A stretch of 64,000 nt of DNA from a virus. The stretch is taken from IMG/VR virus record IMGVR_UViG_3300042558_004148, positions 207,416 to 271,415 of that record, one strand, 5' to 3'. The notes beneath the pieces are model-generated. The model did no database searches, had not been told where the DNA came from, and saw only the letters and a list, made by a program, of their open reading frames with translations. Below, piece by piece: positions 2,944-53,084 of this stretch (within the stretch, counting starts at the first letter, position 1; every line of letters begins with the position of its first letter). Made by a program: the position numbers and the translations under genes.

Positions 2944-4083
2944 ATGGAAAGAAAATTAGCATCAGTACAGAAAGTTAGAGAAATACTCCCAATAGAGGGA
3001 GCGGATGCAATAGAAATTGCAGTTATTAATTCATGGAAGGTTATCACAAAAAAAGGTGAATATCAGCCGGGAGATCTTTGCATTTATTGCGAGATTGATT
3101 CATTTCTCCCAATTAAAGAAGAATTTGAATTTCTCAGAAAGAGCTCGTTTAAAAAGATGGATGGTCAAGAAGGATTCCGCCTTAAAACAATTAGATTGAG
3201 AGGTCAAGTTAGTCAGGGTCTTATATTGCCATTATCAGTTTTAAATGGCGAGGAGGAAATGACTGTTGGTATCAGCCAGCAACCATGGGGAGATCAATTA
3301 CAACTTGGACCTTATGACGATGCACTTGTTATAGAAGAGGGAGCTGATGTTACTGAGATTTTAGGGATAGTCAAGTACGATCCACCAATCCCAGCTCAGC
3401 TTGCAGGTAAGGTTAAAGGTTACTTCCCATCATTCATTCGTAAGACCGACGAGGAAAGGGTTCAAAATCTAACTAATGAATATTTTGGGTGGAAAATACA
3501 ATCAGCTACTCAATTCTACGTTACTGAGAAATTGGACGGAAGCTCTGCAACATTCTATTTCAAGGATGGCGTATTTGGTGTGTGTTCTAGAAATCTAGAA
3601 TTGGCTGAGCCTGAAGCATTCGTTGAAGGTGAAATGGTAATGTGTCAGGATGGTGTTGAACGACCTAAGCAGGAAAATTCCTTCTGGAAAGTTGCTCAGC
3701 ATCTACAACTTGGAGATTGGATGGCAAAACAAGATGCCAACTATGCTATCCAAGGGGAGTTGATTGGCGAAGGAATTCAGGGAAATCCATATAAAATAAA
3801 AGGTCACACCGTTAGATTCTTTAATGCATTCAATATCGATACACAGGAATATCTAGGACTGGATGAATTTGAGGGCTTAATAAAATCAATGGGATTGGAA
3901 ACTGTGCCTATCTTAGATCGTAATTTTCTTCTTCCTAATACAGTTGATGATCTATTGGAATATGCTGACGCAAAATCAGTTTTAAATCCGGATTTCGATA
4001 GAGAGGGAGTCGTTATCAGAAGTCTTGATAGAAAGATTAGCTTCAAAGCTATCTCCAATAAATTCCTATTAAAAGAGAAATAA
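2944..4083 (+). CDS. ATP-dependent RNA ligase (nucleotidyltransferase superfamily)
   Basis: Ligase motif I KxDG (TEKLDGSS), a motif IV-like segment (IQGELIGEG) and a motif V-like segment (YKIKGHTVRF). The N-terminal VQKV..IEGAD...GDLCIYCEIDS stretch is typical of phage Rnl-type ligases. Confidence 0.65.
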   Translation: MERKLASVQKVREILPIEGADAIEIAVINSWKVITKKGEYQPGDLCIYCEIDSFLPIKEEFEFLRKSSFKKMDGQEGFRLKTIRLRGQVSQGLILPLSVLNGEEEMTVGISQQPWGDQLQLGPYDDALVIEEGADVTEILGIVKYDPPIPAQLAGKVKGYFPSFIRKTDEERVQNLTNEYFGWKIQSATQFYVTEKLDGSSATFYFKDGVFGVCSRNLELAEPEAFVEGEMVMCQDGVERPKQENSFWKVAQHLQLGDWMAKQDANYAIQGELIGEGIQGNPYKIKGHTVRFFNAFNIDTQEYLGLDEFEGLIKSMGLETVPILDRNFLLPNTVDDLLEYADAKSVLNPDFDREGVVIRSLDRKISFKAISNKFLLKEK

Positions 4084-4544
4084 TGGGGAGAAATAAAATA
4101 AAGGAGCCATTAGTTAACGAGAGGATAGGAATTCTTCTTAAAGCTAATGGCTTTAATAGAAGTGTTGCTAATTATAATTGGGAATCAGATTCAGAAGGCG
4201 ATATGGTTTTTGAATCGGAGCTTCAGTATCCGAATAATTCCGAATTTACACATAATCCTGAGATTGATCCAGCTATAATTGAATTTGAAAAATGGCAGGA
4301 TTCCCTTATTCCTAGACCTTCACAGGAGGTTGTTAGATACTGGTTATCATCGTATAAATCAATTGAAATTGAAATTGAAATTGATAAAACAGCGGAACCA
4401 AAATATTGTTTCTCCGTTTGGTCTTATTCTGATTTCGGTAACTGGGAAGAAATAAAACAGGATGAGTGGTATTTATACCGGACTCGTCAAGAGGCTATCG
4501 ACGAAGCTATTGAATTAGCTTTAAAAAGCTTACAATACAAATAA
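4083..4544 (+). CDS. hypothetical protein
   Basis: ORF track; contains an in-frame (gaaatt)3 repeat encoding IEIEIEID. Confidence 0.45.
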   Translation: MGRNKIKEPLVNERIGILLKANGFNRSVANYNWESDSEGDMVFESELQYPNNSEFTHNPEIDPAIIEFEKWQDSLIPRPSQEVVRYWLSSYKSIEIEIEIDKTAEPKYCFSVWSYSDFGNWEEIKQDEWYLYRTRQEAIDEAIELALKSLQYK

Positions 4545-4545
4545 A

Positions 4546-5010
4546 TTATCTATTGCCTATTCTTTTCTCTATTTGGGTTTTTGCGTGTTTTATTAGATAT
4601 TCATCAACGTTAGGTATTTTATAAAGGAATTCAAGCTCATATTTATAACAGAGTATTTCCTCTATATTTACATCCATTTTTACGCCGAGCATCTTAATTT
4701 TTAAATGCATGGATTCATGGACCAGAACGGAGCATATGTTATTAATATCACCTATCTTCATATCGGAAGCTGATATAAATATTACTCCTTTACCGTTAGT
4801 TTCTACTAAATTAGTTGAATAACCACCATTCCAAAAGGAAATCTTATAGCAGCTTTTGTCTATAAGGTTATAATATGATGTATCTATGGTATTTATTTTA
4901 TCTAATGCTTTACGAACGTCCTTATCCCAGAAATCACCAGCTTGATCTATTTGTATCTGTGCTGATAAATATACGGGAATAAAAAAGAGAATATAAATTA
5001 TGGATTTCAT
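4546..5010 (-). CDS. secreted HExxH zinc-metallopeptidase-like protein
   Basis: N-terminal signal peptide (MKSIIYILFFIPVYLSAQ) and HExxH (VLVHESMHL). Confidence 0.4.
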   Translation of the reverse strand: MKSIIYILFFIPVYLSAQIQIDQAGDFWDKDVRKALDKINTIDTSYYNLIDKSCYKISFWNGGYSTNLVETNGKGVIFISASDMKIGDINNICSVLVHESMHLKIKMLGVKMDVNIEEILCYKYELEFLYKIPNVDEYLIKHAKTQIEKRIGNR

Positions 5011-5043
5011 GATTTATATATTAAAAAATTAAAATTTAAAAAT

Positions 5044-5589
5044 ATGTCTTTAGAGAAAGAACCTGCTAAAAACAGAAAACCAGTACAGAATAACAGAAAA
5101 CCAAAAAAACCAGTGGCTATCAAAAATATCGCGGATGATATAAGCGATCTTGAGGTTGCTAGAAAAATGATTAAAATATACCAAAGTGCACAGGACAGAA
5201 AACTTGAATTCAATTTAAGCTTTGAATCTGTTAAAAAACTTTTGTCATATCATACATGTTATTATACAAATAGGATATTTGATGAGGATGGTCCATTTTC
5301 AAGAAGTTTTGATCGAATCGATTCAGCAAAAGGATATATCGAAAATAATGTGGTTGCATGTACAGTGGATATAAATGGGAAGAAGAGCAACTTGTCAATG
5401 GAGGAAATAGAATGTCTATATACTAAATTGATAAAATATCACACCAAGAAATCCGATCAGACAATAAAATCTGAAATTTCAAATCCAGTAACTTCCATAG
5501 TATCTGAAATCGTTATATCGAACGAGGAACCAGAAGAAATTCGTGATGGTGAAACATCAGAAGGTACCGCTGAAGTGGAAGATATATAG
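5044..5589 (+). CDS. HNH-family nuclease-like protein (possibly inactive, H->R)
   Basis: CYYTNRIF....SFDRIDSAKGYIENNVVACTVDINGKKSN matches the HNH_3 layout (C..C ... D[H]ID ... N ... N..K), but with DRID in place of DHID. Confidence 0.35.
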   Translation: MSLEKEPAKNRKPVQNNRKPKKPVAIKNIADDISDLEVARKMIKIYQSAQDRKLEFNLSFESVKKLLSYHTCYYTNRIFDEDGPFSRSFDRIDSAKGYIENNVVACTVDINGKKSNLSMEEIECLYTKLIKYHTKKSDQTIKSEISNPVTSIVSEIVISNEEPEEIRDGETSEGTAEVEDI

Positions 5590-5592
5590 TGA

Positions 5593-6444: not shown

Positions 6445-6842
6445 TGAAAAATATCAAGGATTATAAAGTTTTTGAATCAACAGAGGAAGAGGAAGGTACT
6501 GAAAGATTAGCTCTCCTTATTGATTATAATAGATCCAGGATACTGAAATTCTTTTCGGATAAAGGCATGGATTCAGACTTCGTTGCTATAGAAGATCCAG
6601 AAGAATTTATAATGGAATACTGGCCGAGATCTCTTGATGGTTCAATATCAAATAGGATATCATATTACATTGACGAATTTAGATCAATTATATCCAAGGA
6701 ACTAAAAACTGGCATAGAATGGAGATTCGGACCGAACGGAAACGTACAGAGACTAATATTTACTCTGGATAGCCCGATATCTCAGGAATACTACGATGGG
6801 ATATTAAAATACATCGAGACCAAAGAAAAATTAAAATATTAG
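6444..6842 (+). CDS. hypothetical protein
   Basis: ORF track; ATGA overlap with the upstream gene. Confidence 0.45.
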   Translation: MKNIKDYKVFESTEEEEGTERLALLIDYNRSRILKFFSDKGMDSDFVAIEDPEEFIMEYWPRSLDGSISNRISYYIDEFRSIISKELKTGIEWRFGPNGNVQRLIFTLDSPISQEYYDGILKYIETKEKLKY

Positions 6843-6843
6843 A

Positions 6844-8064: not shown

Positions 8065-8508
8065 ATGGCAAAAAAACACGTAAATATTGTAAACCGAAAA
8101 GCTAAATTCGAATATGAATTTATAAGAACCTTAGTTGCAGGTATTCAATTGATGGGATCCGAGGTTAAGTCTATAAGGGACTCAAGAGTTGATTTTTCGG
8201 ATTCGTACTGTTATTTTAATAATGGAGAGTTATACATCAAGAATCTAAGCATCACGCAAATGGATTCGCATTATTCACACGAAGCAAAAAGAGATCGAAA
8301 ACTTCTACTGAAGAAAAGAGAACTAACCAAATTTGAAAAAGATCTGGTTAAGAACATGTCAATAGTTCCGTACAGAATCTTCGAAACTGATAAGGCTATG
8401 CTTAAAATGGAAATAGCTCTAGGAAGGGGTAAAAAACTTTACGATAAGAGGGAGACTATAAAAAATAGGGACATAGAAAGAGACACTCAGAAACAACTTA
8501 AAGGATAA
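8065..8508 (+). CDS. smpB: SsrA-binding protein SmpB
   Basis: NRKAKFEYEF..GIQLMGSEVKSIRDSRVDFSDSYCYF, RDRKLLLKKREL and GRGKKLYDKRETIK align position-by-position with bacterial SmpB. Confidence 0.85.
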   Translation: MAKKHVNIVNRKAKFEYEFIRTLVAGIQLMGSEVKSIRDSRVDFSDSYCYFNNGELYIKNLSITQMDSHYSHEAKRDRKLLLKKRELTKFEKDLVKNMSIVPYRIFETDKAMLKMEIALGRGKKLYDKRETIKNRDIERDTQKQLKG

Positions 8509-8512: not shown

Positions 8513-9046
8513 ATGGAAAAAATTGAATGGTGCATAGAACAGCACAGAAAAACCAATCACTGGTATGATGAGTATTTGCCGTATGAATTTCATCTAAGAA
8601 TGGTAGCACAAGCGGCTAAAGATTTTATTCATTTGGTACCTGATTCAAATGATGGTGAAACATCATTCCGGGATGATATTATCCTGGCTGCACATGGCCA
8701 CGATTTAATAGAAGATACGAGGGTTTCATATAATGACGTAAGAGAGGTTCTTGGTCACACTCCAGCTGATATCATCTATGCAGTATCTAACGAAAAAGGA
8801 AAGAATCGTAAGGAACGAGCAAACGACAAATATTACGGGGGTATCAGAAATACGCCAGGTGCAGTCTTTGTTAAACTTGCAGATCGAATTGCCAATGTTC
8901 AATATTCTAAGATGACTAAATCAAGAATGTTTGAAATGTACAAAAAGGAAAATGATAATTTCTTAACAAGTCTTGGTTTTGTTGAAGGCCAAGCACATCC
9001 ACTTGGTGAGATGTGTCACTATTTGGAAAATCTATTCATTGATTAA
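8513..9046 (+). CDS. HD-domain (p)ppGpp hydrolase-like protein (small alarmone hydrolase / Mesh1-SpoT type)
   Basis: AAHGHDLIEDT, EVLGHTPADIIYAVS and VKLADRIANV match the SpoT/Mesh1 hydrolase HD motifs (HDxxED ... KLADRLhN). Confidence 0.7.
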   Translation: MEKIEWCIEQHRKTNHWYDEYLPYEFHLRMVAQAAKDFIHLVPDSNDGETSFRDDIILAAHGHDLIEDTRVSYNDVREVLGHTPADIIYAVSNEKGKNRKERANDKYYGGIRNTPGAVFVKLADRIANVQYSKMTKSRMFEMYKKENDNFLTSLGFVEGQAHPLGEMCHYLENLFID

Positions 9047-10849: not shown

Positions 10850-10882
10850 TTTTTTATCTCCGTCTTTTTTTGTTATATTTGC
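10850..10882 (+). promoter_or_regulatory. phage promoter: upstream element TTTTTTATCTCCGTC plus -7 TATATTTG
   Basis: Matches the recurring element + N9 + TAnnTTTG architecture; about 15 nt before ATG 10897. Confidence 0.55.
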
Positions 10883-10896
10883 TAAAAAATAAAGAT

Positions 10897-11628
10897 ATGT
10901 TTAAATTTTACGAGGTTGGTGGAAAGGTTAGAGACGAGATTTTAGGATTACAGTCTAAAGACGTTGATTATGTTGCAGTTCCGAATGATGCTTTATTAAG
11001 CAAATATAAGGAGGCATATGAAATGTTTCTGTCTCTCGAGAATTATCTTACAACAAATGGATTTGAAATATTCCTATCTACTCCTGATTGCTATACAATT
11101 AGAGCGAAGTTTCCGAAAGACCATGTATATTCAGGCGTAGCGGACTTCGTAATGGCACGAAAAGAAGTTGGTTATGTTACAGGCACAAGAACTCCAATAG
11201 TTAAGCCAGGCACTCTATATGACGATCTAGAGCGAAGAGATTTTACCCTCAATGCTCTTGCTAAGGATGACGATGGAACCATCATAGACTTTTTTAATGG
11301 GATAGACGATCTTAAAGCTGGTGTATTGAAAACACCTCTTGATTGCAAGGTGACATTTGACGACGATCCGCTAAGAATTCTGAGAGCTATTAGATTTTCT
11401 ATAACCAAGGGATTTACCATGACACCACATATGGCCATCGTTATTGATTCCTACAATTATGACGAAAAAATGTCAGTGGTTTCAACCGAGAGAATCAGGG
11501 AGGAATTATATAAATGTTTCAAAGAGAATACATTAGGAACGCTAAGAATTCTTAATGAATTTCCAACTCTAAGAAATTACATTTTTGAAAAAACTGATCT
11601 TTGGTTAAAGCCAACTAACGAAAAATAG
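10897..11628 (+). CDS. tRNA nucleotidyltransferase (CCA-adding enzyme, head domain only)
   Basis: MFKFYEVGGKVRDEILGLQSKDVDYVAV matches the GGxVRD...DxD head motif and RRDFTLNALA matches RRDFTINA. The track start at 10870 is a TTG lying inside the -7 box, so the ATG at 10897 is preferred. Confidence 0.8.
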   Translation: MFKFYEVGGKVRDEILGLQSKDVDYVAVPNDALLSKYKEAYEMFLSLENYLTTNGFEIFLSTPDCYTIRAKFPKDHVYSGVADFVMARKEVGYVTGTRTPIVKPGTLYDDLERRDFTLNALAKDDDGTIIDFFNGIDDLKAGVLKTPLDCKVTFDDDPLRILRAIRFSITKGFTMTPHMAIVIDSYNYDEKMSVVSTERIREELYKCFKENTLGTLRILNEFPTLRNYIFEKTDLWLKPTNEK

Positions 11629-11633: not shown

Positions 11634-12371
11634 ATGGCTGATAATATATTCTGTCCGGTGTGCAAGTGTCAATTACACGTAACACATAGTGCAAGGTATG
11701 AATCTAGAGAAGAGCACATCTCAAATCCGAATGGTCCATTTTCTATGAAGGATGGATATCAATGTACCAATGTTAGTTGGTGTGAAGCTTCATATCTAAA
11801 TTATACGTGGATACATGATGGTGATTATTATTCAAATCCACCAGAAGGTATCAGCTACTCTGAGGCTTCCAAGAGATTGAAAGCAGCTAGTGTATCTGGA
11901 ATGGGTTATGCACTTAATTCATGGGAACATTATTACGAATTAGGAAAACTTAATGTCGACAAAAGAAAAAAGACTGTCTATATCGGAAAATACATGATTA
12001 AGATAGAGCCTAAAACTTACGGCTATGATTACCCAATCGAAAAACAATATATGCCAAGAAGATTTGGGTGGAAATTTGAATTTTTCCAGAGGACCAGTGA
12101 TGGATGCTACACAAACATAATACCAACATACAGAATGGTTAGGTATTGTTTGAGACAGTTCAATATGAATTATCGCAACATAAAACAAAACAGCTCTTCC
12201 AGCAATGGATCAATTAAGGAGGCTTTATCGATGATAAATTGTACCAATTGGGGTAGAACCCCTGATGATAGACTTTATGCTAAAATATCATCATTCCTCG
12301 TTAGACTATTCTACCCAAAGAAGGTTAAATACGTAAGGGAAATAGCTGAATCAAATCAAATCAAATATTAA
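11634..12371 (+). CDS. hypothetical Cys-rich protein
   Basis: ORF track; N-terminal CPVCKC...H. Confidence 0.45.
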   Translation: MADNIFCPVCKCQLHVTHSARYESREEHISNPNGPFSMKDGYQCTNVSWCEASYLNYTWIHDGDYYSNPPEGISYSEASKRLKAASVSGMGYALNSWEHYYELGKLNVDKRKKTVYIGKYMIKIEPKTYGYDYPIEKQYMPRRFGWKFEFFQRTSDGCYTNIIPTYRMVRYCLRQFNMNYRNIKQNSSSSNGSIKEALSMINCTNWGRTPDDRLYAKISSFLVRLFYPKKVKYVREIAESNQIKY

Positions 12372-15418: not shown

Positions 15419-15642
15419 TGAATAAATTCAGAGCAATTCTTACAGTATTTTTTATGGTCATCATACCGATGGCTATTCTAAATTGCATTTTATATTTAAT
15501 TGGAAGCTTTATTGCTTGGGATTGGAACCCACTTAATTGGCTTTTATTAAGTGAATCGGTAGGTAGGGTAATTTTGGTTATTCTTGAAATAGTATTTCTT
15601 GTAAATTCTCCTAATTTTTTTGACGAAGATTTCGAGCTATAA
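15418..15642 (+). CDS. small membrane protein
   Basis: Two hydrophobic helices. Confidence 0.4.
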   Translation: MNKFRAILTVFFMVIIPMAILNCILYLIGSFIAWDWNPLNWLLLSESVGRVILVILEIVFLVNSPNFFDEDFEL

Positions 15643-16154
15643 TGAGAGTTATATTTCTTGACATAGACGGTGTTTTAAATACATGGGATTATATAGGTTC
15701 ATTATATCTTCTAGCAAGTAAACATAAGGTGGGTTCGAGTATCGATGAATATGGACAGCTATTTGATCCAAGGTGTGTCAATTATCTGGATTACATAATT
15801 AGAGAGACAGATGCTAAGATAGTCATAAGCTCAACATGGAGAAATAAAGGTATAAGCAATCTGCAGGAAATGTGGGAAATGAGGGATTTACCTGGAGAAA
15901 TAATAGACATAACCCCGCTTACCTTGGATGGAGAAATTGTTGAGAGATACTATCACGTCGATGCTGATAGGGGATACGAGATACAGGAATGGTTGGATAA
16001 CCACGACGATATAGAGTCATATGTCATCCTTGATGACATGTCGGATATGCTCCCATCGCAAAATTTCGTAAAATGTGACGGTAAATTTGGAATAACCAGA
16101 GAGGTTGCTAACATGGCAATACACCACTTAATAAAGGAAAAATATTCGGAATAA
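15642..16154 (+). CDS. HAD-superfamily phosphatase
   Basis: Motif I VIFLDIDGVLN, a Ser/Thr motif (ISSTWR) and a later ILDDMSD. Confidence 0.5.
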   Translation: MRVIFLDIDGVLNTWDYIGSLYLLASKHKVGSSIDEYGQLFDPRCVNYLDYIIRETDAKIVISSTWRNKGISNLQEMWEMRDLPGEIIDITPLTLDGEIVERYYHVDADRGYEIQEWLDNHDDIESYVILDDMSDMLPSQNFVKCDGKFGITREVANMAIHHLIKEKYSE

Positions 16155-19016: not shown

Positions 19017-20054
19017 ATGGATTCAAAATCAGTAATACGATCAATCATAGAAGGAAAGAGCGGGTTACATTTTTCTAAAGGTTGTAAAAAAATGTATAAA
19101 GAACTATATGATGAGATTTGCGAAAATACAAAATTCTTAGATGAGACAAATCCAAGAATAATTGATCGAGCATATCACTACATAAATGGGATAACCGAAT
19201 CTAAAAAATGTATCGAATGTTCAAATCCTATGTCTAGGATTGATTCTACCTTTTGTTCTAAAAAATGCATGGATTCTAGTGAATTCTTAAAAAAGAAAAA
19301 GGAGGAAACAAACTTAAAGAAATTTGGTTCTACAAATGTTTCTAAAACTGATTATTTTAAGGAAAAGTATAAAAATACAATGAATAAAAAATATGGTGTA
19401 GATCATTATTCTAAAACTAAAAGCTATTTAGAAAAGTATAGGGAAACTTCTCTTGAACGATACGGAGAATCGAATCCAGCAAAAAGTGATTTGATAAAAA
19501 AGAAGACTGAAGATACCAATATTGAAAGATATGGAAGTAAAAGTCCTTTGCAAAACCCCGCAATTAAACAAAAAACCATAGAAACTTTGACCTCTAAATA
19601 CAACATCGATCATAATTCTAAAATAGAAGGAAGATATGAAAAAATGAAAGAGAATTCAAATAATAATTTTGGTACCGACCATCCGATGCAAAATGAGGAA
19701 GTTTTTGATAAATGCATGAAAAACTCTTATCGTTTCAAAGAATATAAATTACCCAGTGGTAAAATTGTTAAGGTTCAAGGATATGAGAATTTTGCTTTAG
19801 ATAAATTACTGGAGTCCTATAATGAAAATGATTTGATTATAGGGACTAAAGAGATAAAAACTATTATAGGTAGAATCGAATACTTTTTCGAAGGTGGAAA
19901 AAAAGTATATCATCCTGATATTTACATAGTATCAGAAAATAAAATTGTTGAAGTTAAGTCAGCCTACACGATTAAGCTTGATTTAGAAAAAAACGAAGCT
20001 AAAAGAAAAGCTGTTTTAGATAAAGGAATTAATTTTGAATTTATGATTTTTTAA
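19017..20054 (+). CDS. putative nuclease: Zn-ribbon + six ~23-aa tandem repeats + C-terminal PD-(D/E)xK domain
   Basis: CIECSN...CSKKC zinc ribbon. Repeats of the form K.K.E....K(Y/F)G..(H/N).... x6. C-terminal YHPDIYIV...IVEVKSAY gives D...E.K (restriction-endonuclease-like). Confidence 0.45.
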   Translation: MDSKSVIRSIIEGKSGLHFSKGCKKMYKELYDEICENTKFLDETNPRIIDRAYHYINGITESKKCIECSNPMSRIDSTFCSKKCMDSSEFLKKKKEETNLKKFGSTNVSKTDYFKEKYKNTMNKKYGVDHYSKTKSYLEKYRETSLERYGESNPAKSDLIKKKTEDTNIERYGSKSPLQNPAIKQKTIETLTSKYNIDHNSKIEGRYEKMKENSNNNFGTDHPMQNEEVFDKCMKNSYRFKEYKLPSGKIVKVQGYENFALDKLLESYNENDLIIGTKEIKTIIGRIEYFFEGGKKVYHPDIYIVSENKIVEVKSAYTIKLDLEKNEAKRKAVLDKGINFEFMIF

Positions 20055-20064: not shown

Positions 20065-20922
20065 ATGAAAGACCCAATCGGAGATCGTATGAAATCTTTT
20101 TATGAAGATAGAACTCGATACAAGTTAACAAGAAGAACTTACACAATCATAAGAATTGACGGCAAGTCATTTAGTAATTACACAAAGGGATTAGAAAGAC
20201 CTTTCGACGAAGGACTAATCAATGACATGAATGCTACCACTGCATACCTTTGCAAAAACATTCAAGGAGCTAAATTAGGTTATGTACAATCAGACGAGAT
20301 TAGTTTAGTTCTAACTGACTTCGATGATCTAGGAACACATGCTTGGTTTGATAACAACCTACAGAAAATGGCGTCTGTAGCTGCTTCTATGGCAACAGCT
20401 AAATTTAATGAATTAAGGATTGCTAGAGCTTTTAGACAATATGAATGTCTATTCGATACGCCATTACAGATGAATGCCGATGAGATATTAGAATTTCTAT
20501 CTAAAATCAAGAAAGCTGAGTTTGACGCTAGGGTATTCCAAATCCCTTTTATCGACGAGGTTTGCAACTATTTTATTTGGAGACAACAAGATGCAGTAAG
20601 AAACTCAATTTCTTCGGTTGCACAAAGCCTTTATAGTACAAAAGAACTACATGGGGTTAAGACTGATGGAATGCAAGACCTAATCTTTCAGAAAGGAATC
20701 AATTGGAATGACTATGATTTTCGTAAGAAAAGAGGAGCAGTAATTGGCAAAGTAGAAAAGTTATTTACAAAGACCTCAAATTATTATGATCCTAATACAT
20801 CTTACATCCCGTCTGAACACATTTTTACTAGAAATGTATGGGAAGTTATTGAAACCCCAACGTTCACTCAAGACAAAGATTTTCTTAGAGATATTCTAAA
20901 CAAAGAAATAAAATCAGTTTAA
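20065..20922 (+). CDS. Thg1-like protein (tRNA-His guanylyltransferase family, 3'-5' polymerase)
   Basis: IIRIDGKSFSNYTKGLERPFDE, GYVQSDEISLVL and NNLQKMASVAASMATAKF align with the Thg1/TLP palm-domain motifs (RiDG..F, QSDE). Confidence 0.8.
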   Translation: MKDPIGDRMKSFYEDRTRYKLTRRTYTIIRIDGKSFSNYTKGLERPFDEGLINDMNATTAYLCKNIQGAKLGYVQSDEISLVLTDFDDLGTHAWFDNNLQKMASVAASMATAKFNELRIARAFRQYECLFDTPLQMNADEILEFLSKIKKAEFDARVFQIPFIDEVCNYFIWRQQDAVRNSISSVAQSLYSTKELHGVKTDGMQDLIFQKGINWNDYDFRKKRGAVIGKVEKLFTKTSNYYDPNTSYIPSEHIFTRNVWEVIETPTFTQDKDFLRDILNKEIKSV

Positions 20923-23686: not shown

Positions 23687-24574
23687 ATGTACATCTTAAA
23701 TCTCACGGACAATGAAAAGTCCGACATTAAATTTCAAATCTCAAAATTCCCTGATGGACAGCAATCAGTAACAATCACTGATTGTACAAATGCATCTGAT
23801 ATATCTCATCCCGTAAAAATTAAGTCCCGTCTAAATTCTTTTAAGGATTTAGAACTTATCGTTTGTGCAACACAAGCTTTACGAGATCTTGGTACTAAAG
23901 AAATTCATTTGTATTCTCCTTATTTTGTAGGTGCTCGTTCAGATCGTAAATTCGTTCAAGGATCCACGAACTATCTAAAAAATGTAATCTGTCCTATTAT
24001 CAATTCACAAAATTTCGAATCGGTAAATGTACTTGATCCTCACTCGGACGTACTCGAAGCTTGCTTAAATAATTACGTTAAGGAAGATAATCATCGACTT
24101 GTAAAATTTGCACTACCTCCAATCGATAATAAAGATGGTGCTCAAAGAAGAGTGGTTCTTGTTTCACCTGATGCTGGGGCTTACAAAAAAATCTTTGATG
24201 TTGCTCAGAAATTCGCCATCGAAAATGTGGTTACTGCTATGAAGCATAGGGACATCGAAACTGGGAAAATCACACATACAGAAATTCCTAATATCGATCA
24301 ATATGGTGAAGATCATAAATTTGTAATTGTCGACGATATCTGTGACGGTGGAAGAACCTTCATCGAATTGGCAAAGGAGATCCGTAAACATAACGCGATT
24401 TCTGACATCTATTTAATTGTTACCCATGGAATCTTCTCAGCAGGATTAAAACCACTGAATGATGCATTCACAGGAATATTCTGCACTAATTCATATTCAG
24501 ATGTGAACGATCCTGAATTTAGCCTACGTAACGATAATGAATTACATAGACTAAAGCAACTTAACGTTTTCTAA
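23687..24574 (+). CDS. ribose-phosphate pyrophosphokinase family protein (Prs-like; candidate ADP-ribose pyrophosphokinase)
   Basis: KFPDGQQSV, YSPYFVGARSDRK (cf. PYfgYARQDRK), VLDPHSD, VVLVSPDAGAYKK and FVIVDDICDGGRTF (PRTase loop) track Prs along its whole length. Confidence 0.75.
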   Translation: MYILNLTDNEKSDIKFQISKFPDGQQSVTITDCTNASDISHPVKIKSRLNSFKDLELIVCATQALRDLGTKEIHLYSPYFVGARSDRKFVQGSTNYLKNVICPIINSQNFESVNVLDPHSDVLEACLNNYVKEDNHRLVKFALPPIDNKDGAQRRVVLVSPDAGAYKKIFDVAQKFAIENVVTAMKHRDIETGKITHTEIPNIDQYGEDHKFVIVDDICDGGRTFIELAKEIRKHNAISDIYLIVTHGIFSAGLKPLNDAFTGIFCTNSYSDVNDPEFSLRNDNELHRLKQLNVF

Positions 24575-27940: not shown

Positions 27941-28432
27941 ATGAAAACATACACTAAATACACATTCTTCTATAAAACACGTCACCCGTTCTCCAATTGG
28001 CATCCATGTTCATTTGAGGACGAGGAGGGAAACGAATATAATTGCTCAGAGCAATGGATGATGGCGGAAAAGGCTAAGCTATTTGGCGACGAAGAAACCA
28101 GAGAGGAAATTTTATTCTCAAAGGATCCTGGTAAACAAAAGGAGCTAGGGAGAAAGGTTAAGAATTTCAATTCTGATGTCTGGACAGAAAATGCTAAAAA
28201 AATTGTTTACAATGGATGTCATTTGAAATTCACTCAGAATCCAAAATTACTAAAAACATTATTGGACACCGAAGGAACCTTACTTGTTGAAGCTTCACCC
28301 TACGATAAAATCTGGGGTATAGGTCTTGGCGAGGATGACCCTAAAATACACGATCCTAAAAATTGGAGAGGTACAAATTGGCTAGGCGAAGTTCTAACTG
28401 ATCTTAGAGATAATCTATTAAAATCTAAATAA
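27941..28432 (+). CDS. NADAR (YbiA/DUF1768) domain protein
   Basis: FSNWHPCSF.....YNCSEQWMMAEKAKLF....W......KF.QNP.L...LL.T....LVEASPYDKIWGIG is the NADAR signature. Confidence 0.7.
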   Translation: MKTYTKYTFFYKTRHPFSNWHPCSFEDEEGNEYNCSEQWMMAEKAKLFGDEETREEILFSKDPGKQKELGRKVKNFNSDVWTENAKKIVYNGCHLKFTQNPKLLKTLLDTEGTLLVEASPYDKIWGIGLGEDDPKIHDPKNWRGTNWLGEVLTDLRDNLLKSK

Positions 28433-29247: not shown

Positions 29248-30765
29248 ATGTTTAAACCCACAAGTTTATTTTACACTGATGGCTATAAAATTGGCCACAA
29301 GAAAATGTTAGCTCCCGGAACAACCCGTTTGTACGGTACTTGGATTCCACGAAGCACAAAGCATGCTCCTGAGGGAGTAGATAAAATAGTATCATTCGGT
29401 CAACAATTGGTAGTGAAATGGTTACATGATGAATTCGAAGAGAATTTTTTCAAACAACCAATTAGCGTTGCTACTAAATTTTCCGATGATATGTCAAAGT
29501 ATTTAGGACTTCCGTTCGATGGTTCACACTTCTCGGAATTACATCATCTGGGTTACTTGCCTATTAGAATTAAAGCTTTACCTGAAGGTATCGAAACAAA
29601 CCCTAACATCCCTCACATGACATTTGTGAATACTGTGGATGGATTCGGATGGTTAACATTATATTTGGAGACCATCATATCTTCATTGGCATGGAAACCA
29701 GCAACCTCTGCTACACTTGCACTAAGATACCGAAGAAATTTGGTTGAATGGGTTACGAAAACTGATCCGGCTAACGCTTGGTTAATTCCTTTCCTATGTC
29801 ACGACTTCTCTGCTAGAGGTTTATCTCCATGGGATATGTTATCTAGTGGTTTAGGACACGCTACGTCATTCAGAGGATCTGACACTATTGTTTGTATTCC
29901 TGCAGCACGATACTTCTATAACGAGCCAGAAAACGATGTCTGCATCAATTCTGTTAACGCTTCTGAACACTCAGTATCAACAACAAAGATATTTACTGTA
30001 GGAGAACAACAAATGATCTCCGATTGGTTAACTGAATTCCCTACAGGAATCCTATCAATTGTATCTGACACTTTTGATTTATGGAAACTTATCACGGAAT
30101 ATCTTCCTGCAAATAAAGAGCAAATCATGTCACGTGATGGAAAACTTGTTATCCGTCCTGACTCTGGTGATCCAGTAGATATTATCTGTGGTTCAGTGGA
30201 TGTGTTTAAGCACAATGATCCTAATTCACCACAAAGAAAAGGTGTAGTTGAATTACTTTGGGATATCTTCGGTGGAACAATCAACGAACAAGGATACAAA
30301 GTTCTTGATCCACATATTGGTGCGATCTACGGGGATTCAATCACAGTTGGTCGTCAGATTCAAATCTATGAAAGATTAGAAGAAAAAGGTTTTGCTTCAA
30401 CAAACATCGTGTTGGGAATCGGATCATTCACTTATCAAATGAATACTAGAGATACTTTGGGATTCGCTGCTAAAGGAGCTTGGTTCGAAGTAGAAGAACC
30501 TATATTTGGTGAATTTTTAGACCAAAATCTAAATACTGAAAAGGTTGCTTATGACATCTATAAAGATCCAATCACTGACGACGGAACTAAAAAATCATTG
30601 AAGGGATTAGTTCAAGTTGTAATGGAAGGCGATGAATATCATGTTAATACTCAATGTACTTGGGAACAGGAGGAGCAGGGCTTTTTACAAACAATCTATG
30701 AAGAGGGAAGATTCGTTAACGAAACAACTCTTGAGGAAGTACGTAACAAATTAAATTCTTTATAA
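29248..30765 (+). CDS. nadV: nicotinamide phosphoribosyltransferase family protein (Nampt/NadV-like; candidate nicotinamide ADP-ribose transferase)
   Basis: LFYTDGYKIGHKKMLAPGTTRLYGTWIPRS matches the Nampt N-terminus (tDsYK.tH..yP..t..yS....R). NASEHSVSTT matches AAEHST. Length 505 aa. Confidence 0.75.
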   Translation: MFKPTSLFYTDGYKIGHKKMLAPGTTRLYGTWIPRSTKHAPEGVDKIVSFGQQLVVKWLHDEFEENFFKQPISVATKFSDDMSKYLGLPFDGSHFSELHHLGYLPIRIKALPEGIETNPNIPHMTFVNTVDGFGWLTLYLETIISSLAWKPATSATLALRYRRNLVEWVTKTDPANAWLIPFLCHDFSARGLSPWDMLSSGLGHATSFRGSDTIVCIPAARYFYNEPENDVCINSVNASEHSVSTTKIFTVGEQQMISDWLTEFPTGILSIVSDTFDLWKLITEYLPANKEQIMSRDGKLVIRPDSGDPVDIICGSVDVFKHNDPNSPQRKGVVELLWDIFGGTINEQGYKVLDPHIGAIYGDSITVGRQIQIYERLEEKGFASTNIVLGIGSFTYQMNTRDTLGFAAKGAWFEVEEPIFGEFLDQNLNTEKVAYDIYKDPITDDGTKKSLKGLVQVVMEGDEYHVNTQCTWEQEEQGFLQTIYEEGRFVNETTLEEVRNKLNSL

Positions 30766-49217: not shown

Positions 49218-49231
49218 ATAACAATTAAAAA

Positions 49232-49311
49232 GGTCCTGGAGCTTAATCTGACGTGGAAGTCAGGTCTGCCTCTAAAACAGATAGCATCGGGTTCGAATCC
49301 TGCTAGGATCA
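49232..49311 (+). tRNA. tRNA-like gene A (80 nt, non-canonical D region), anticodon loop C-U-CUA-A-A (amber-suppressor-like CUA)
   Basis: Acceptor GGTCCTG pairs with TAGGATC (two G.U pairs). T arm CGGG-TTCGAAT-CCTG. Anticodon stem TCTG/CAGA closes the loop CTCTAAA. Discriminator A. No encoded CCA. Confidence 0.45.
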
Positions 49312-49317
49312 CAAAAG

Positions 49318-49330
49318 AGTTCTTTGAAAT
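49318..49330 (+). repeat. 13-bp direct repeat AGTTCTTTGAAAT (copy 1)
   Basis: Identical 13-mer recurs at 50148..50160, bracketing about 820 bp. Confidence 0.5.
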
Positions 49331-49597
49331 AGTAAGATAGCAGATAGACCTATATCAGCAGAATCCCACAGGGAGTCAGAAATGACGAGCAAGACGGAGC
49401 TCCTATCAGATTAACGCGTTGAGGAGGCACTCAAAGTTTTCCGAGAGGTTAACAGGTGTATAAACGATGGTTTGGGTAGAACGGATGTTAAAGGCGAGAT
49501 ATAGGTAGAAAGGATGGGGTAACCCACGAATGTGTAAATCTTAAGGTCTTACTATTTTAATTATTCTTGATTGATAATTAACACTTAAAAAATATTT

Positions 49598-50143: not shown

Positions 50144-50147
50144 AAAT

Positions 50148-50160
50148 AGTTCTTTGAAAT
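50148..50160 (+). repeat. 13-bp direct repeat AGTTCTTTGAAAT (copy 2)
   Basis: See copy 1. Confidence 0.5.
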
Positions 50161-50164
50161 TATA

Positions 50165-50840
50165 AAAAATATCATAAAAACGGCCTGGTTGGTAGACAGG
50201 GAGGAGTATTTAATGTAATCTGCTCAATGTGAGGAAATAACTGTCTGTAGGCATACAACAGTCCAAACGATAAACCATTATGATACAATTAGCAATGGAG
50301 GTAAACGCGAGATGAAGCGTTGGAGAATAGGGGCTCATGGATTTGAGATTCCCGCCTGGCTACCCATCAGGACTTTATAAGATAATTCCATCCACCTATA
50401 AGAAACCATTGCTTTTTAAAATATATTTAGTTAATAAATATTTTGGGGAAAGGATTAATTAACTAAACAGGTTAAACATTGAATACCTTTGTAAATTATA
50501 GTTGGGCATTTCACAGATGAGTGTTTAGATGAGTTTGAATCTCAGATTGTCCTCAAAGTTAAGAAGTTGAAAGACTCTTTTGCTATAGGTTTACATAAAG
50601 ATACTATCAGTAATGGTAGATGTGTTGTTCCCTTGAGAAAGGAATACGATTTGGCAAGCTTGGTGCAGGAGTTTTGATACTGACAAGACAACACAAATGA
50701 GTTCTCAGCAAGTGCTTCGAAAAGCTATGCAGTTTTAAAACTCCTATGGAGCCTTACAAACTAGAAGTACGTGACCCTACTCTTATACAAGCCCCGTAAC
50801 TGATAACTCGGTAGGCTATAAGAAAGAGGGTGCTAAATAA
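50165..50840. other. about 680-bp ORF-free, GC-richer block; candidate structured ncRNA(s)
   Basis: No ORF of 60 aa or more on either strand. Composition differs from the flanking AT-rich genes. It sits inside the tRNA-like cluster. Confidence 0.3.
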
Positions 50841-50845
50841 AAGTT

Positions 50846-51052
50846 ATGGAAAGAGAAATAAGTAAAGAAACTGATGAGTTTATTGATAAATTAGACCATC
50901 TATGTTGGGAACATCGCTTTGAAATTTGGCCAACTGATACCATTAATAAAAGAAATGAAGATGGATCATATCCAACTTTTACTATTCATAATATGAGCAA
51001 TGGGGAAACAGTAAGATTAATATATGTCGATGGTGACGGAAGAGGTAAATAA
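50846..51052 (+). CDS. hypothetical protein
   Basis: ORF track. Confidence 0.4.
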   Translation: MEREISKETDEFIDKLDHLCWEHRFEIWPTDTINKRNEDGSYPTFTIHNMSNGETVRLIYVDGDGRGK

Positions 51053-51058
51053 TTAAAT

Positions 51059-51228
51059 AGTCAGGTGGCGGAATTGGTAGACGCTATTTTGAAAGCAAAC
51101 AGTTGCAGGATTAGATCGGCACCAGCTAAGTAGTATCAAATGCCATTAAGGTACTGGGTCGTAATAACTGATATTAACCGCTCGCGGTTGGCATGTAATC
51201 CATGCAGGTTCGAGTCCTGCCCTGACTA
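51059..51228 (+). tRNA. tRNA-like gene B (about 170 nt): type-II-like 5' half and T arm/acceptor separated by an insertion of about 100 nt
   Basis: 5' AGTCAGG-TG-GCGGAATTGGTAGACGC (canonical acceptor + D arm). 3' GCAGG-TTCGAGT-CCTGC + CCTGACT + A. The acceptor strands are complementary. About 100 nt too long for a tRNA. Confidence 0.45.
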
Positions 51229-51268
51229 CGAATTCTTATCGACGTTGATAAGAAGAAAAACAAATATA

Positions 51269-51727
51269 ATGAAAAGAACAAAATTAATTTTAATTGCGAT
51301 GTTAAGTGTTTTGTCACTAAGTACATTCGCTCAATCCATTACATCGGTAGTTACCCCGGCAACTAGTGATACTTTATGCAATGGATCAACCACTTTTACC
51401 GGAGCTAATCCATCAGCAGTGTTTATTTGGATGCAACAAGGGACAACACCAATTGCAACGTTTACATCGGATTCAACAACCTATAATCTATGTCCAGGAA
51501 TATATGATGTTCAAATTTGGAACAATATGACGGATACGATGTACTATGATACAGTCATTACCATCCTATCACCATCAACACATTTAGGAATCGATGAATT
51601 GACAAATGAAGCCAAAATTGTAGGAGTATTTGATTTAGTAGGTAAAGAATCTGAATTGGTAACAAATAAACCTCTGGTTTTGGTTTATAGTAACGGAACA
51701 AGAAAACGTAGATATATTACAGAATAA
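51269..51727 (+). CDS. secreted protein
   Basis: The internal ATG at 51269 gives a signal peptide MKRTKLILIAMLSVLSLSTFAQ. The track start 51140 lies inside tRNA-like gene B. Confidence 0.5.
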   Translation: MKRTKLILIAMLSVLSLSTFAQSITSVVTPATSDTLCNGSTTFTGANPSAVFIWMQQGTTPIATFTSDSTTYNLCPGIYDVQIWNNMTDTMYYDTVITILSPSTHLGIDELTNEAKIVGVFDLVGKESELVTNKPLVLVYSNGTRKRRYITE

Positions 51728-51734
51728 TAAAAAA

Positions 51735-51864
51735 AGTCAGGTGGCGGAATTGGTAGACGCTAGACAGGTAACCAACTACAACTGTAATAAACCCGCTGAT
51801 CACGGTTAATAAGAACAGCTCTGTCGCAGAGGTTGGTATACAGGTTCGAATCCTGTCCTGGCTA
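51735..51864 (+). tRNA. tRNA-like gene C (about 130 nt): first 28 nt identical to gene B; insertion of about 57 nt
   Basis: 5' AGTCAGGTGGCGGAATTGGTAGACGCTA is identical to B. 3' ACAGG-TTCGAAT-CCTGT + CCTGGCT + A. The acceptor pairs with one G.U pair. Confidence 0.45.
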
Positions 51865-52009
51865 CTTAGCAAGGCATAAACGATAAGGAAAATCTGTCAC
51901 AAGTTTATGTTAAGTTGCAGACAGACCGAAATGCTTACGGTTAACAGGGCTTACCCATAAAGTCCAGAGAGCATAATCTAACGGGTGACTGATGGAAAGA
52001 CATCAAAAT

Positions 52010-52096
52010 AGTCAGGTGGTGTAATAGGCAACACCCTTCATTATCAGGCCCCGTAAGGCTGGAAGGACGACGCAGGTTCGAATCCTGTCCTGACCA
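52010..52096 (+). tRNA. tRNA-like gene D (87 nt) with an extended (about 32-nt) anticodon-arm-like hairpin
   Basis: Acceptor AGTCAGG/CCTGACC (A1.C72). D arm GTGT-AATAGGCA-ACAC. Long hairpin CCTTC...CAG(G)CC-CCGTAA-GGCTG...GAAGG. T arm GCAGG-TTCGAAT-CCTGT. Confidence 0.45.
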
Positions 52097-52217
52097 CTAA
52101 AACAACTAGCGGAGTAGGCACAAATCTTCGTTAACAGTGGTATTTAAGTAGGTTTGGGGATGCTGTGTAGTCCATTGAAAACTAAACCGAAGATTGCTTA
52201 TGTAGTTGTTTTTATAC

Positions 52218-52283
52218 AGTCAGATGAAAGTAGGCTAAGACGAATTAAGTTTCGCGTTGCAGGTTCGATTCCTGCTCTGACTA
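52218..52283 (+). tRNA. tRNA-like gene E (66 nt, degenerate; possibly a pseudo-tRNA)
   Basis: Acceptor AGTCAGA/TCTGACT and T arm GCAGG-TTCGATT-CCTGC. The internal region is too short for both a D arm and an anticodon arm. Confidence 0.35.
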
Positions 52284-52309
52284 CTAATATTAAATTAAAA
52301 AAATTCCAT

Positions 52310-52636
52310 GTGAATGTAGACTTATTTAGACATTGGCTTCCGGACTTAAGACAAACTCAAAACAAGAGTGCTTATGTAGCAAAGCAATGCCCGATTTGTC
52401 CAAGAACCCCGAATAGCAAATCGTTTCGTATAAACACGAAACTAAAAGTTTTTAAGTGCTATCAATGCGGAAGAGGTGGAAAGAACTTTAATAAGATGGT
52501 CCATTATTTAAAGAAACGTGATACTAGTGTACATAGTAATAAATATCTGAAGAAAATAGGTCGTCGTCCAGTGTGTGTTCCTATTGAGGTTCATTACGGT
52601 TGTGAAACTTTCTATGAAAGTCAGCTCCCATTTTGA
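52310..52636 (+). CDS. CHC2 (primase-type) zinc-finger protein, start uncertain (GTG)
   Basis: CPICPRTPNSKSF....KVFKCYQCGRGGKNFNKMVHYL matches the DnaG CHC2 finger. The frame is open back through tRNA-like gene E with no ATG, so GTG 52310 is the first plausible start. Confidence 0.4.
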   Translation: MNVDLFRHWLPDLRQTQNKSAYVAKQCPICPRTPNSKSFRINTKLKVFKCYQCGRGGKNFNKMVHYLKKRDTSVHSNKYLKKIGRRPVCVPIEVHYGCETFYESQLPF

Positions 52637-52641
52637 CATAT

Positions 52642-52676
52642 AACCCGTGAGGACGTAAAGACGAATAAGCGGGTTT
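52642..52676 (+). terminator. possible terminator (long-loop hairpin)
   Basis: AACCCG...CGGGTT stem followed by TATTAAAAATAAATTT; weak. Confidence 0.3.
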
Positions 52677-52742
52677 ATTAAAAATAAATTTAATAAAAAA
52701 AGAAACTTTTTTAAAAACAAATATATAATAGGTATGAATTAG

Positions 52743-53084
52743 ATTAAATTACAAACTCCGAAACTTGTCATCATAACCAGACAAGACATCAACCCAGGTT
52801 ATCAAGTTGTTCAATCAACACATTCAATAGCTGACTTTGCTTATGAACATCCTGAAAAGTTCAAAGAATGGAAAGAGACATCAAATTCTATAATTTGTCT
52901 CTCCGCAAGATCAGAAGAGCACCTAATTAAACTTTACGAGAAATACAGAACCGTCACAGAGGCATCATTGTTTTTTGAGCCTGATGTTGACGCATATACT
53001 TCTGCGTGTTTTTTTGGAACTCCACAAGTCAGAAAAGCATTCTCGCATCTACCGCTATCATTAAAAACACAACCAACATCATGA
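52743..53084 (+). CDS. PTH2-like peptidyl-tRNA hydrolase; no canonical start codon in the open frame
   Basis: KLVIITRQDINPGYQVVQSTHSIADFAY and WKETSNSIICLSARSEEHLIKLYEKY align with PTH2 ([29 protein letters not shown] / [27 protein letters not shown]). The frame opens at ATT directly after ATG-AAT-TAG. Stop overlaps the next gene (ATGA). Start coordinate approximate. Confidence 0.55.
   Translation: MKLQTPKLVIITRQDINPGYQVVQSTHSIADFAYEHPEKFKEWKETSNSIICLSARSEEHLIKLYEKYRTVTEASLFFEPDVDAYTSACFFGTPQVRKAFSHLPLSLKTQPTS

Follow-up and report, generated by a model that had tools for sequence, protein, structure and literature searches.

A PTH2-like gene with a conserved in-frame amber codon, a linked tRNA with a CUA anticodon and a set of RNA-repair genes in a jumbo-phage genome

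The DNA described here (the window) is a stretch of 64,000 nucleotides taken from the IMG/VR virus record IMGVR_UViG_3300042558_004148, positions 207,416 to 271,415. It is AT-rich (GC content about 34-35%) and densely coding, with genes mostly on the + strand, and it comes from the genome of a jumbo or huge phage. Contigs related to it measure 250-430 kb, and judging from these relatives the host probably belongs to the Bacteroidota. A megablast of positions 1-25000 against GenBank phages gave no close match. The window carries genes for RNA repair and ribosome rescue, an island of tRNA-like RNAs and a gene for a protein of the peptidyl-tRNA hydrolase 2 (PTH2) fold. An earlier note, made from the letters of this DNA, had read five of the genes as a toolkit against tRNA-targeting defences; it overlooked a conserved in-frame TAG (the gate) in the PTH2-like gene and a partner tRNA with a CUA anticodon, tRNA(CUA). 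The main interest of the window lies in this amber-gated gene with its mostly non-canonical tRNA(CUA), and in anticodon-less tRNA-shaped RNAs. The gate is apparently new, no published description having been found in a literature search of incomplete coverage.

The PTH2-like gene, its amber codon and the linked tRNA(CUA)

The earlier note had placed a PTH2-like peptidyl-tRNA hydrolase at about 52743 to 53084. The fold was borne out; the rest fell short, as there is no ATG, GTG or TTG start within 52743-53084, the Pfam match stays just under the cutoff and the catalytic lysine is missing. The profile PF01981 scored 22.7 bits (E=1.2e-4, N-terminal two thirds only) against a curated gathering cutoff of 23 bits, and a precomputed PF01981 match was found on many close homologues of the protein. 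An AlphaFold (AF2) model built from 39 sequences had a predicted local distance difference test score (pLDDT) of 81.6, and when this model was compared with the PDB by Foldseek the top 11 matches were all Pth2/Bit1 (probability 1.0, TM-score 0.54-0.69). Judged by the predicted structure, the assignment of this gene to the PTH2 fold is sound.

Read from 52734, the frame runs ATG(52734) AAT TAG(52740) ATT AAA. Comparison with relatives showed the same pattern in all PTH2-like genes of the clade examined as DNA, namely ATG, one to four codons and TAG (at codons 3-6), never TAA or TGA. The TAG is kept in about 20 relatives from Bacteroidota-type phages at 34-87% identity, and by this conservation a sequencing error or a pseudogene was ruled out. 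All eight IMG/VR relatives at 62-85% identity open with ATG-NNN-TAG-ATT-AA. More distant leaders (named here by our locus handles) read ATG TTG TAG ATT in L367, ATG AAA AAC TAG ATT in L368 and ATG AAA ATG AAT CAC TAG ACA in L369. The amber layout was also found in L224 and L226 (about 44% identity), in L023, in L178 (39%), in the 630-640-kb phages LR745206, LR756502 and LR756504, and in the cultured Tenacibaculum phage pT24, whose PTH2-like leader is ATG AAA TAG ATA (34% identity). When 366 loci were searched for an ATG separated by no more than 7 codons from a stop, with a long start-less open reading frame (ORF) behind it, real-looking proteins turned up almost only with TAG, and nearly all of them were PTH2-like.

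Genes with the gate are systematically mis-annotated, being started downstream or missed, and some database gene callers gave the TAG as Q. In pT24 (L371; LC168164 194.1 kb) the GenBank coding sequence (CDS) BPT24_235 starts at an internal ATG, about 100 nt downstream of the point where the PTH2-like domain begins. Two further candidates were tried and rejected. The motif TAGATTAA is not a general promoter or start motif, with 8 occurrences observed against 8.3 expected (no enrichment), and Xanthomonas phage Xoo-sp13 has no gate, its PTH2-like domain being the C-terminal part of a normal CDS of 280 amino acids. Separately, the ORF at 53546-54091 (window 53504-54091) has the in-frame leader ATG TGC AAC TAG ATT AAC, in which the TAG-ATT-AAC context is like that of the PTH2-like leaders, and its match to the phrog_14850 profile is confined to positions 90-265 of 270. 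By its leader and this partial match it may be a second gated or a split gene.

The element at 49233-49313 is a candidate amber suppressor by its anticodon. In a five-sequence alignment of tRNA(CUA), 98% of cells were paired and compensatory changes occurred in 8 pairs; in a ten-sequence alignment, 96.8% of cells were paired and 19 of 22 pairs were compensatory, while slid controls gave 32-47%. In the ten sequences an 8-bp acceptor stem is followed by an 8-nt linker, a 5-bp D hairpin (GG loop), an anticodon stem, a variable loop of 5 nt, a T stem of 4 bp and the discriminator A73. The 9-nt loop on the anticodon stem reads N-YUCUAAM-N, which gives an invariant CUA together with U33 and A37. Orthologues of this element lie near the PTH2-like gene in relatives. 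A tRNA with a CUA anticodon, either 8/4 or canonical, was found at 18 of 23 PTH2-like loci and at 9 of 352 others (Fisher's exact p=6e-20, a value that overstates the evidence, since not all of the loci are independent in phylogeny). The tRNA(CUA) is at most about 120 nt upstream of the PTH2-like gene in L204, L205/206/295/296, L367 and L023, and in pT24 an annotated tRNA-Sup is located 2.6 kb upstream of it. Two nearby 'tRNA-Undet' genes of pT24 also have irregular anticodon arms.

Read-through by the phage suppressor is the most economical reading of the gate. Translation of the PTH2-like mRNA would meet an obligatory UAG two to five codons past the AUG, with an 8/4 tRNA(CUA) encoded nearby by the phage, and no hydrolase would be made unless the phage suppressor decodes this UAG, its amount rising with the extent of decoding. 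Peptidyl-tRNA recycling or rescue would thereby depend on how much amber suppression the phage imposes. In a feed-forward version, read-through of natural TAG stops would send ribosomes into 3' ends and create a need for SmpB and Pth; a negative-feedback version, in which the device would be a homeostat, requires that the suppressor itself be a substrate of the enzyme. In L224, L226 and LR745206 SmpB and the PTH2-like gene are adjacent, which fits both versions alike. No global recoding of TAG was detected: the gain in ORF coverage with TAG as sense was no larger than with TGA as sense, in the window and in 13 related loci, and no other genes split by TAG were found in the window. A phage using the alternative code 15 was therefore rejected, as there is no surplus of TAG-split genes and TAG ends 15 of the 105 predicted genes of the window (14%; TAA ends 81, or 77%).

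ATT or ATA follows nearly all gates of the clade, which also fits re-initiation at a non-canonical start. From this, an alternative can be framed in which the TAG is not read through: ATG-NNN-TAG would be a mini-ORF of two to five codons, and the PTH2-like protein would be made by termination and re-initiation at ATT or ATA. Such a mini-ORF could resemble the lambda bar minigene and sense peptidyl-tRNA or RF1 load. Two-codon minigenes of the bar type are classically tied to Pth through the drop-off of tiny peptidyl-tRNAs, a connection that favours this alternative. On the other hand it does not account for a stop that is always TAG although 77% of stops are TAA, and it leaves the tight tRNA(CUA) linkage unexplained. 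Moreover, in L369 ACA follows the TAG and no canonical or otherwise usable start precedes the conserved core with its first strand, so that simple re-initiation cannot be general. The mini-ORF is on balance quite unlikely.

The mycobacteriophages offer a related arrangement. In the Bxz1-like, cluster C phages Myrna (L374, 1470-2034) and Breeniome (L375, 2483-3241), GTG-TAG or ATG-TAG stands right before the annotated GTG start of the PTH2-like gene. The next gene in Myrna and Breeniome is a tRNA with anticodon CUA, tRNA(cta). Their NTG TAG GTG has a Shine-Dalgarno sequence that is well spaced for the GTG after the TAG, which lends support to the mini-ORF and leaves the gate in these two phages ambiguous.

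Read-through by the phage suppressor has further points against it, besides the shared ancestry of the loci and the ATT or ATA that follows the gates. The 15 TAG-ended genes of the window show no enrichment of backup stops; efficient suppression would thus extend many proteins, which points to weak or transient read-through. At five PTH2-like loci no tRNA(CUA) was found, either within 6-kb flanks (L370, L372, L373) or on contigs of 1.3-1.4 kb (L368, L369); the L369 contig opens with an apparent truncated tRNA 3' end. The protein also departs from Pth2, in that alignment puts a near-invariant Tyr20 at the position of the GKGK-motif lysine. This lysine and an aspartate are the catalytic residues of Pth2 according to the literature on the S. 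solfataricus enzyme. Manual comparison suggests that the aspartate corresponds to the invariant D81 of the PTH2-like protein, a position that lies beyond the end of the HMMER alignment. With lysine replaced by tyrosine, chemistry or substrate may differ.

With these points weighed, we tentatively propose a two-part device in Bacteroidota jumbo and huge phages, and possibly in mycobacteriophage cluster C. It would consist of an amber-suppressor tRNA, often of 8/4 architecture, and a UAG-gated PTH2-fold hydrolase, acting as a sensing or autoregulatory loop that sets or buffers UAG read-through in a phage whose code is otherwise standard, and it would be accompanied by the Leu-shaped RNAs described below, with their diverse structured inserts, as a new class of tRNA-scaffolded non-coding RNA. 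Taken as a whole this proposal is possible, though it falls somewhat short of probable.

Table 1. Features of the window, assigned from the matches and observations in the last column.
Feature	Coordinates	Strand	Evidence and remarks
RNA ligase, Rnl5 (Naegleria NgrRnl / Deinococcus DraRnl) type	2944..4083	+	PF21189, PF09414, PDB 5cot
SmpB, full length	8065..8508	+	PF01668, PDB 7ljp
HD-domain metal-dependent phosphohydrolase	8513..9046	+	phrog_990, weak Pfam HD match, synteny
Class II CCA-adding-type nucleotidyltransferase, head and neck only	10870..11628	+	PF01743, motifs
'Swiss-army-knife' (SAK) RNA-repair HAD phosphatase	15642..16154	+	PF18143 HAD_SAK_2 7e-29, synteny
Thg1-like protein (TLP), 3'-5' nucleotidyltransferase	20065..20922	+	PF04446, PDB 4kgk
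Non-canonical 8/4 tRNA, anticodon CUA, A73, no encoded CCA	49233..49313	+	Rfam tRNA 25.4 bits (below threshold), covariation
tRNA-Leu-shaped scaffold RNA (acceptor, D and T arms), 119-nt insert for anticodon arm	51059..51228	+	
Second tRNA-Leu-shaped scaffold RNA, 79-nt insert	51735..51864	+	Rfam tRNA 33.1 bits, 72-nt insertion
tRNA-like element, A1-C72 mismatch, 22-nt loop on anticodon stem	52010..52096	+	Rfam tRNA 37.8 bits, fold
Degenerate tRNA-like element with acceptor and T arm, lacking a D stem	52218..52283	+	Rfam tRNA 27.5 bits (below threshold), fold
PTH2-fold hydrolase gene, frame ATG AAT TAG ATT...	52734..53084	+	Amber codon 52740-52742, in frame

The tRNA-like RNAs of the island

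Five tRNA-like genes without an encoded 3' CCA had been noticed before. Five elements were indeed found and none of them encodes CCA; direct inspection of the sequence showed that each ends with acceptor-A-C and then a base other than C. However, none of the five is an ordinary tRNA. One is the suppressor-type tRNA(CUA) candidate, and the others are Leu-shaped RNAs or variants of them without a normal anticodon arm. ARAGORN called no tRNA genes in the window. The Rfam tRNA model gave two matches above threshold (52010-52096 and 51735-51864) and two below it (52218-52283 and 49239-49311), and the fifth element, 51059-51228, was found by eye and with a purpose-made detector.

The two Leu-shaped scaffolds (51059-51228 and 51735-51864) are built alike, with the constant sequence AGTCAGGTGGCGGAATTGGTAGACGC (acceptor and Leu-type D arm) on the 5' side and another constant part (T arm, acceptor and A73) on the 3' side. 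A 26-mer of this scaffold is present in more than 118 IMG/VR contigs (loci L081-L198), often in several copies per contig, and the elements are rarely called by ARAGORN. Their 98 distinct inserts are 20-119 nt long and hypervariable. That the Leu-like elements are intron-containing or class II tRNAs was considered and rejected, as the 98 inserts show no anticodon stem-loop signal above shuffled controls. Insert families partly recur across contigs with compensatory changes, and the orthologue of 51735-51864 in L121 has such changes in the insert stem. The elements at 52010-52096 and 52218-52283 are degenerate variants of the Leu-shaped ones. A blastn search with one scaffold element against GenBank phages gave no match, and no published description of tRNA-Leu-shaped scaffolds was found in literature that was only incompletely covered. 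It may be speculated that the scaffolds are natural tRNA-scaffolded RNAs which are processed by RNase P, RNase Z and a CCA enzyme. Anticodon-less tRNA-shaped RNAs may be a widespread and unrecognised class of phage RNA.

Between the tRNA-like elements there are non-coding stretches that are conserved. Some 250 nt immediately downstream of the tRNA(CUA) (49313-49597) contain no ORF of 60 or more amino acids, are 87% identical to stretches in L153 and L187 and give no Rfam match at E up to 1. The 700-nt gap at 50144-50845 also has no ORF of that length and no Rfam match; 50175-50375 folds with a z-score of -2.65, and a 24-27-nt motif at about 50620-50646 (GTTCCCTTGAGAAAGGAATA...) is matched at 96-100% in about 15 scaffold-bearing loci. 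A conserved spacer RNA of about 145 nt (51865-52009) separates two of the tRNA-like elements and is 90-99% identical in L197 (1126-1271) and L216 (1-89). The RNA island of L216 is 96% identical to window positions 51920-52025.

The RNA-repair and rescue genes

Besides the PTH2-like gene, the toolkit of the earlier note comprised an RNA ligase, SmpB, a head-domain CCA-adding enzyme and a Thg1-like polymerase. Pfam placed these four of the five genes in their named families (RNA ligase, SmpB, PolyA_pol head and Thg1) above the gathering scores, the curated cutoffs being 27 bits for PF01668, 29.2 for PF04446 and 23 for PF01743, and the catalytic motifs are present.

In the RNA ligase an N-terminal OB domain (PF21189, 1e-40) is followed by the nucleotidyltransferase domain (PF09414 RNA_ligase, 8e-26), and the motif I lysine is kept in KLDGSS. 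The closest solved structure is that of Naegleria gruberi NgrRnl (PDB 5cot, E=2.6e-67). The suggestion that the ligase acts as T4 Rnl1 does could not be upheld, as the nine PDB matches with E of at most 0.001 all belong to NgrRnl or variants of it, with no Rnl1 among them; by homology the ligase is of the NgrRnl/DraRnl (Rnl5) nick-sealing type. A second read-through that would join ORF 2647-2940 to the ligase was rejected, the upstream stop being TAA in relatives.

SmpB matches PF01668 with 152.3 bits (1e-44), residues 8-146 covering profile positions 2-142 of 143, and PDB 7ljp with E=3e-35. Its basic C-terminal tail, GRGKKLYDKRE... (GRGKKLYDKRETIKNRDIERD), aligns with the tails of solved SmpB proteins; this tail is needed for ribosome entry. 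The protein had been called rarely phage-borne, a view contradicted by its relatives, which number at least 89 contigs in IMG/VR and 58 phage records in GenBank. Relatives of the Thg1-like and CCA-type proteins were found in at least 138 and at least 317 IMG/VR contigs, respectively, and of Thg1 in 161 GenBank phage records; the GenBank records include Lak megaphages and phages larger than 600 kb. SmpB and Thg1 are thus not rare in phages. Directly downstream of SmpB is the HD phosphohydrolase (phrog_990, 5e-22, and a weak Pfam HD match), which is syntenic with SmpB, CCA and Rnl5 genes in L027, L212, L214, L228 and L355. By family and position it is a candidate RNA 3'-end healing enzyme.

The CCA-type enzyme starts at 10870 or 10897 (243-252 amino acids) and matches PF01743 with 62.9 bits (5e-17). 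Motifs A, B and D of the head are kept as vGGkvRDeilglqskDvD, RRDFTlNAl and DDPLRiLRAiRF. The head-domain assignment therefore stands, with the qualification that the body and tail domains are missing. The ORF at 11634-12371 was tried as a split body and tail partner and rejected; only 5 of 95 loci have it next to CCA, and neither Pfam nor PHROG gave a match to it. The CCA-type gene ends with TAG (11626-11628), the read-through of which would add 17 residues.

The Thg1-like protein matches PF04446 with 98.2 bits (4e-28). The palm carboxylates, on whose presence the earlier note had made this assignment depend, are found in riDGk and qSDEis when the protein is aligned to 4kgk. Its E-value is 2.7e-55 to this Bacillus thuringiensis TLP, whereas Thg1 structures from eukaryotes and archaea give 1e-7 to 1e-8. 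On these similarities it is a bacterial-type TLP with a predicted activity of templated 5' repair, not a eukaryotic G-1-adding Thg1. The gene directly upstream (19017-20054) encodes a DUF7487 protein, possibly an endonuclease of the homing type, whose C-terminus is TnsA-like. The window also contains a set for nicotinamide adenine dinucleotide (NAD) salvage and ADP-ribose processing: phosphoribosyl pyrophosphate (PRPP) synthetase, a NADAR domain protein and NAMPT (23687-24574, 27941-28432 and 29248-30765). This set is syntenic with Thg1 and SAK-HAD in L024, L025 and L049, and its members are further known jumbo-phage counter-defence genes.

Further analysis of relatives showed that the kit genes recur as neighbours in several arrangements. 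In L027, from a 270-kb contig, Rnl5, SmpB, HD, Thg1, NT5C and CCA genes lie inside 15 kb, and L015 has Rnl5, SmpB, Thg1, NT5C and CCA. L205/L295 have CCA, SAK-HAD and PTH2-like genes inside 2.2 kb, L355 has CCA, HD and Rnl5 inside 2 kb, and in L224/L226 SmpB is directly followed by the PTH2-like gene. SAK-HAD, which adjoins CCA and the PTH2-like gene in L205/L295, adjoins Thg1 in L019/L020/L024. These recurrent neighbourhoods make a good case for a functional module whose targets are tRNA ends and stalled ribosomes, and they support the addition of two members, the HD phosphohydrolase and the SAK-HAD phosphatase, to the earlier five. The toolkit of the earlier note is in this respect upheld, although the concept had already been published and several of its details were imprecise.

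Such neighbourhoods bear on whether these are simply unrelated accessory genes that have gathered in a variable region, a 'toolkit' without functional coupling. The genes are indeed spread over 50 kb among NAD salvage, glycosyltransferase, Fpg and nucleotide metabolism genes, and gene order varies between relatives. That the same genes repeatedly adjoin in differing combinations, on near and distant contigs and in agreement with published neighbourhood analyses, makes an uncoupled assembly very improbable.

From what is known of the families, the HD and SAK-HAD phosphoesterases would heal damaged RNA 3' ends, the Rnl5-type ligase would seal nicks in base-paired RNA, the short CCA-type enzyme would add or rebuild the 3' CCA, and the Thg1-like enzyme would restore 5' ends through templated 3'-5' addition. 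Stalled ribosomes would be freed by SmpB with a tmRNA (transfer-messenger RNA) from the host or encoded elsewhere, and the PTH2-fold protein would free tRNA from peptidyl-tRNA or N-blocked aminoacyl-tRNA. The substrates probably include both the CCA-less tRNA-like RNAs of the phage itself and host tRNAs that defence nucleases have damaged. A link to the particular defences PrrC, RloC, PARIS or GNAT toxins can only be conjectured.

Four points weigh against such a kit. Ligases of the NgrRnl/DraRnl type favour nicked duplexes over broken anticodon loops. No polynucleotide kinase was found among about 60 window ORFs scanned, which makes the healing-and-sealing pathway look incomplete. The CCA-type enzyme has no body and tail domains, which bind tRNA in CCA enzymes; its PDB matches are enzymes of 390-580 residues, aligned over head and neck only. 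Finally, no tmRNA was found in the window by ARAGORN or Rfam. A tmRNA hidden in the RNA island was rejected, as Rfam at E up to 1 gave tRNA matches only and there was no BLAST match to the tmRNAs of L216 and L260. In L216 a bona fide tmRNA (4450-4844, minus strand, with G3:U70 and an encoded CCA) adjoins the phage SmpB; it has no homologue in the window.

The truncated CCA enzyme can also be read in another way. Without the domains that grip the standard tRNA elbow, it could belong to a kit that mainly matures and maintains the phage's own irregular tRNA-like RNAs, the 8/4 tRNA(CUA) and the Leu-shaped scaffolds, and does not primarily serve host tRNAs damaged by defences. That none of the five tRNA-like genes encodes CCA fits this well. 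So do the contiguity of CCA, HAD, tRNA(CUA) and PTH2-like genes in L205/L295 and the position of the 8/4 tRNA(CUA) and PTH2-like gene in L023, about 3.5 kb from Thg1. Yet host enzymes could mature such RNAs, CCA is absent from the tRNA genes of many bacteria, and Thg1, CCA enzymes and RNA ligases are also known from phages that have no such RNAs, Bacillus phages among them. Maturation of the phage's own RNAs and repair of host tRNAs are, moreover, mutually compatible roles. As the main function, the former is rather improbable. The best explanation of the whole, and a reasonably probable one, is an RNA-repair and rescue kit together with a UAG-gated PTH2-like hydrolase that is tied to amber suppression.

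Comparison with known systems

The kit as such is an already-described jumbo-phage gene set and one more example of a published pattern. RNA ligases, SAK-HAD and HD phosphatases, a CCA-adding enzyme, Thg1, PTH2, NADAR/Macro and NAD salvage have been surveyed in jumbo phages (Iyer, Anantharaman, Krishnan, Burroughs and Aravind, 2021, Viruses 13:63, PMC7824862). Components and rationale, the countering of host attack on tRNA and translation, are the same there and in Burroughs and Aravind (2016). The window differs from that survey by its SmpB, Rnl5-type ligase and truncated CCA enzyme; SmpB is absent from the survey, the amber PTH2 gene and its tRNA(CUA) partner are undescribed in it and the words 'suppressor' and 'tmRNA' do not occur there (Iyer et al., 2021). 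Thg1 had been connected earlier with RNA ligase and RNA repair, a phage case included (Anantharaman, Iyer and Aravind, 2010). SmpB, tmRNA and a CCA-adding enzyme were described for phage genomes of more than 200 kb (Al-Shayeb et al., 2020, Nature 578:425, PMC7162821), and the window SmpB shares 50% identity with its counterpart in the 735-kb phage LR756501. The accessible part of Al-Shayeb et al. (2020) mentions neither a gate nor a peptidyl-tRNA hydrolase and, unlike there, the window has no tmRNA.

The T4 response to the PrrC anticodon nuclease, with Pnkp and Rnl1, follows the same logic, in that a phage heals and seals broken tRNA. The window ligase differs in being of the Rnl5/NgrRnl nick-sealing family with an N-terminal OB domain, and no polynucleotide kinase accompanies it among the window ORFs scanned. 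For the gate, prfB (RF2) provides an analogy, namely an early in-frame stop, of the type that concerns the factor's function, in the mRNA of a termination or rescue factor, which suggests a sensing loop. This is an analogy only, the relation of the PTH2-like protein to UAG decoding being hypothetical, and prfB autoregulation via its in-frame UGA uses +1 frameshifting, not suppression.

The tRNA(CUA) resembles the 8/4 allo-tRNAs, some of which are suppressors and some of which occur in phages; polycistrons of irregular tRNAs were proposed there to be regulatory (Mukai et al., 2017, NAR 45:2776). Common to both is a 12-bp acceptor/T branch split 8/4. The window tRNA(CUA) is unlike them in its short variable loop in place of a long V-arm, its 8-nt linker, A73 and CUA, and a linkage of 8/4 tRNAs to PTH2-like genes is unreported in Mukai et al. 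(2017). For the CUA suppressor tRNAs of XacN1, a standard-code jumbo phage, no targets were identified by its authors. The amber gate and its linked suppressor tRNA would offer a concrete target and a regulatory logic for such tRNAs and, if true, the first target identified for CUA suppressor tRNAs in standard-code jumbo phages. The gate is directly testable in cultured systems, in Tenacibaculum phage pT24 and perhaps in Bxz1 or Myrna in Mycobacterium smegmatis.

Finally, stop-codon recoding by a phage 'code-change module' (Borges et al., 2021/2022) is like the proposed device in using a phage suppressor tRNA and in-frame stops as a post-transcriptional gate. It is unlike it in extent: here there is no genome-wide or late-gene recoding, and a single family carries one TAG near its start, with a tRNA that is usually non-canonical. 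The gate suggests that stop-codon read-through may be usable in doses and for a single gene, and not only as a change of code for the whole genome.

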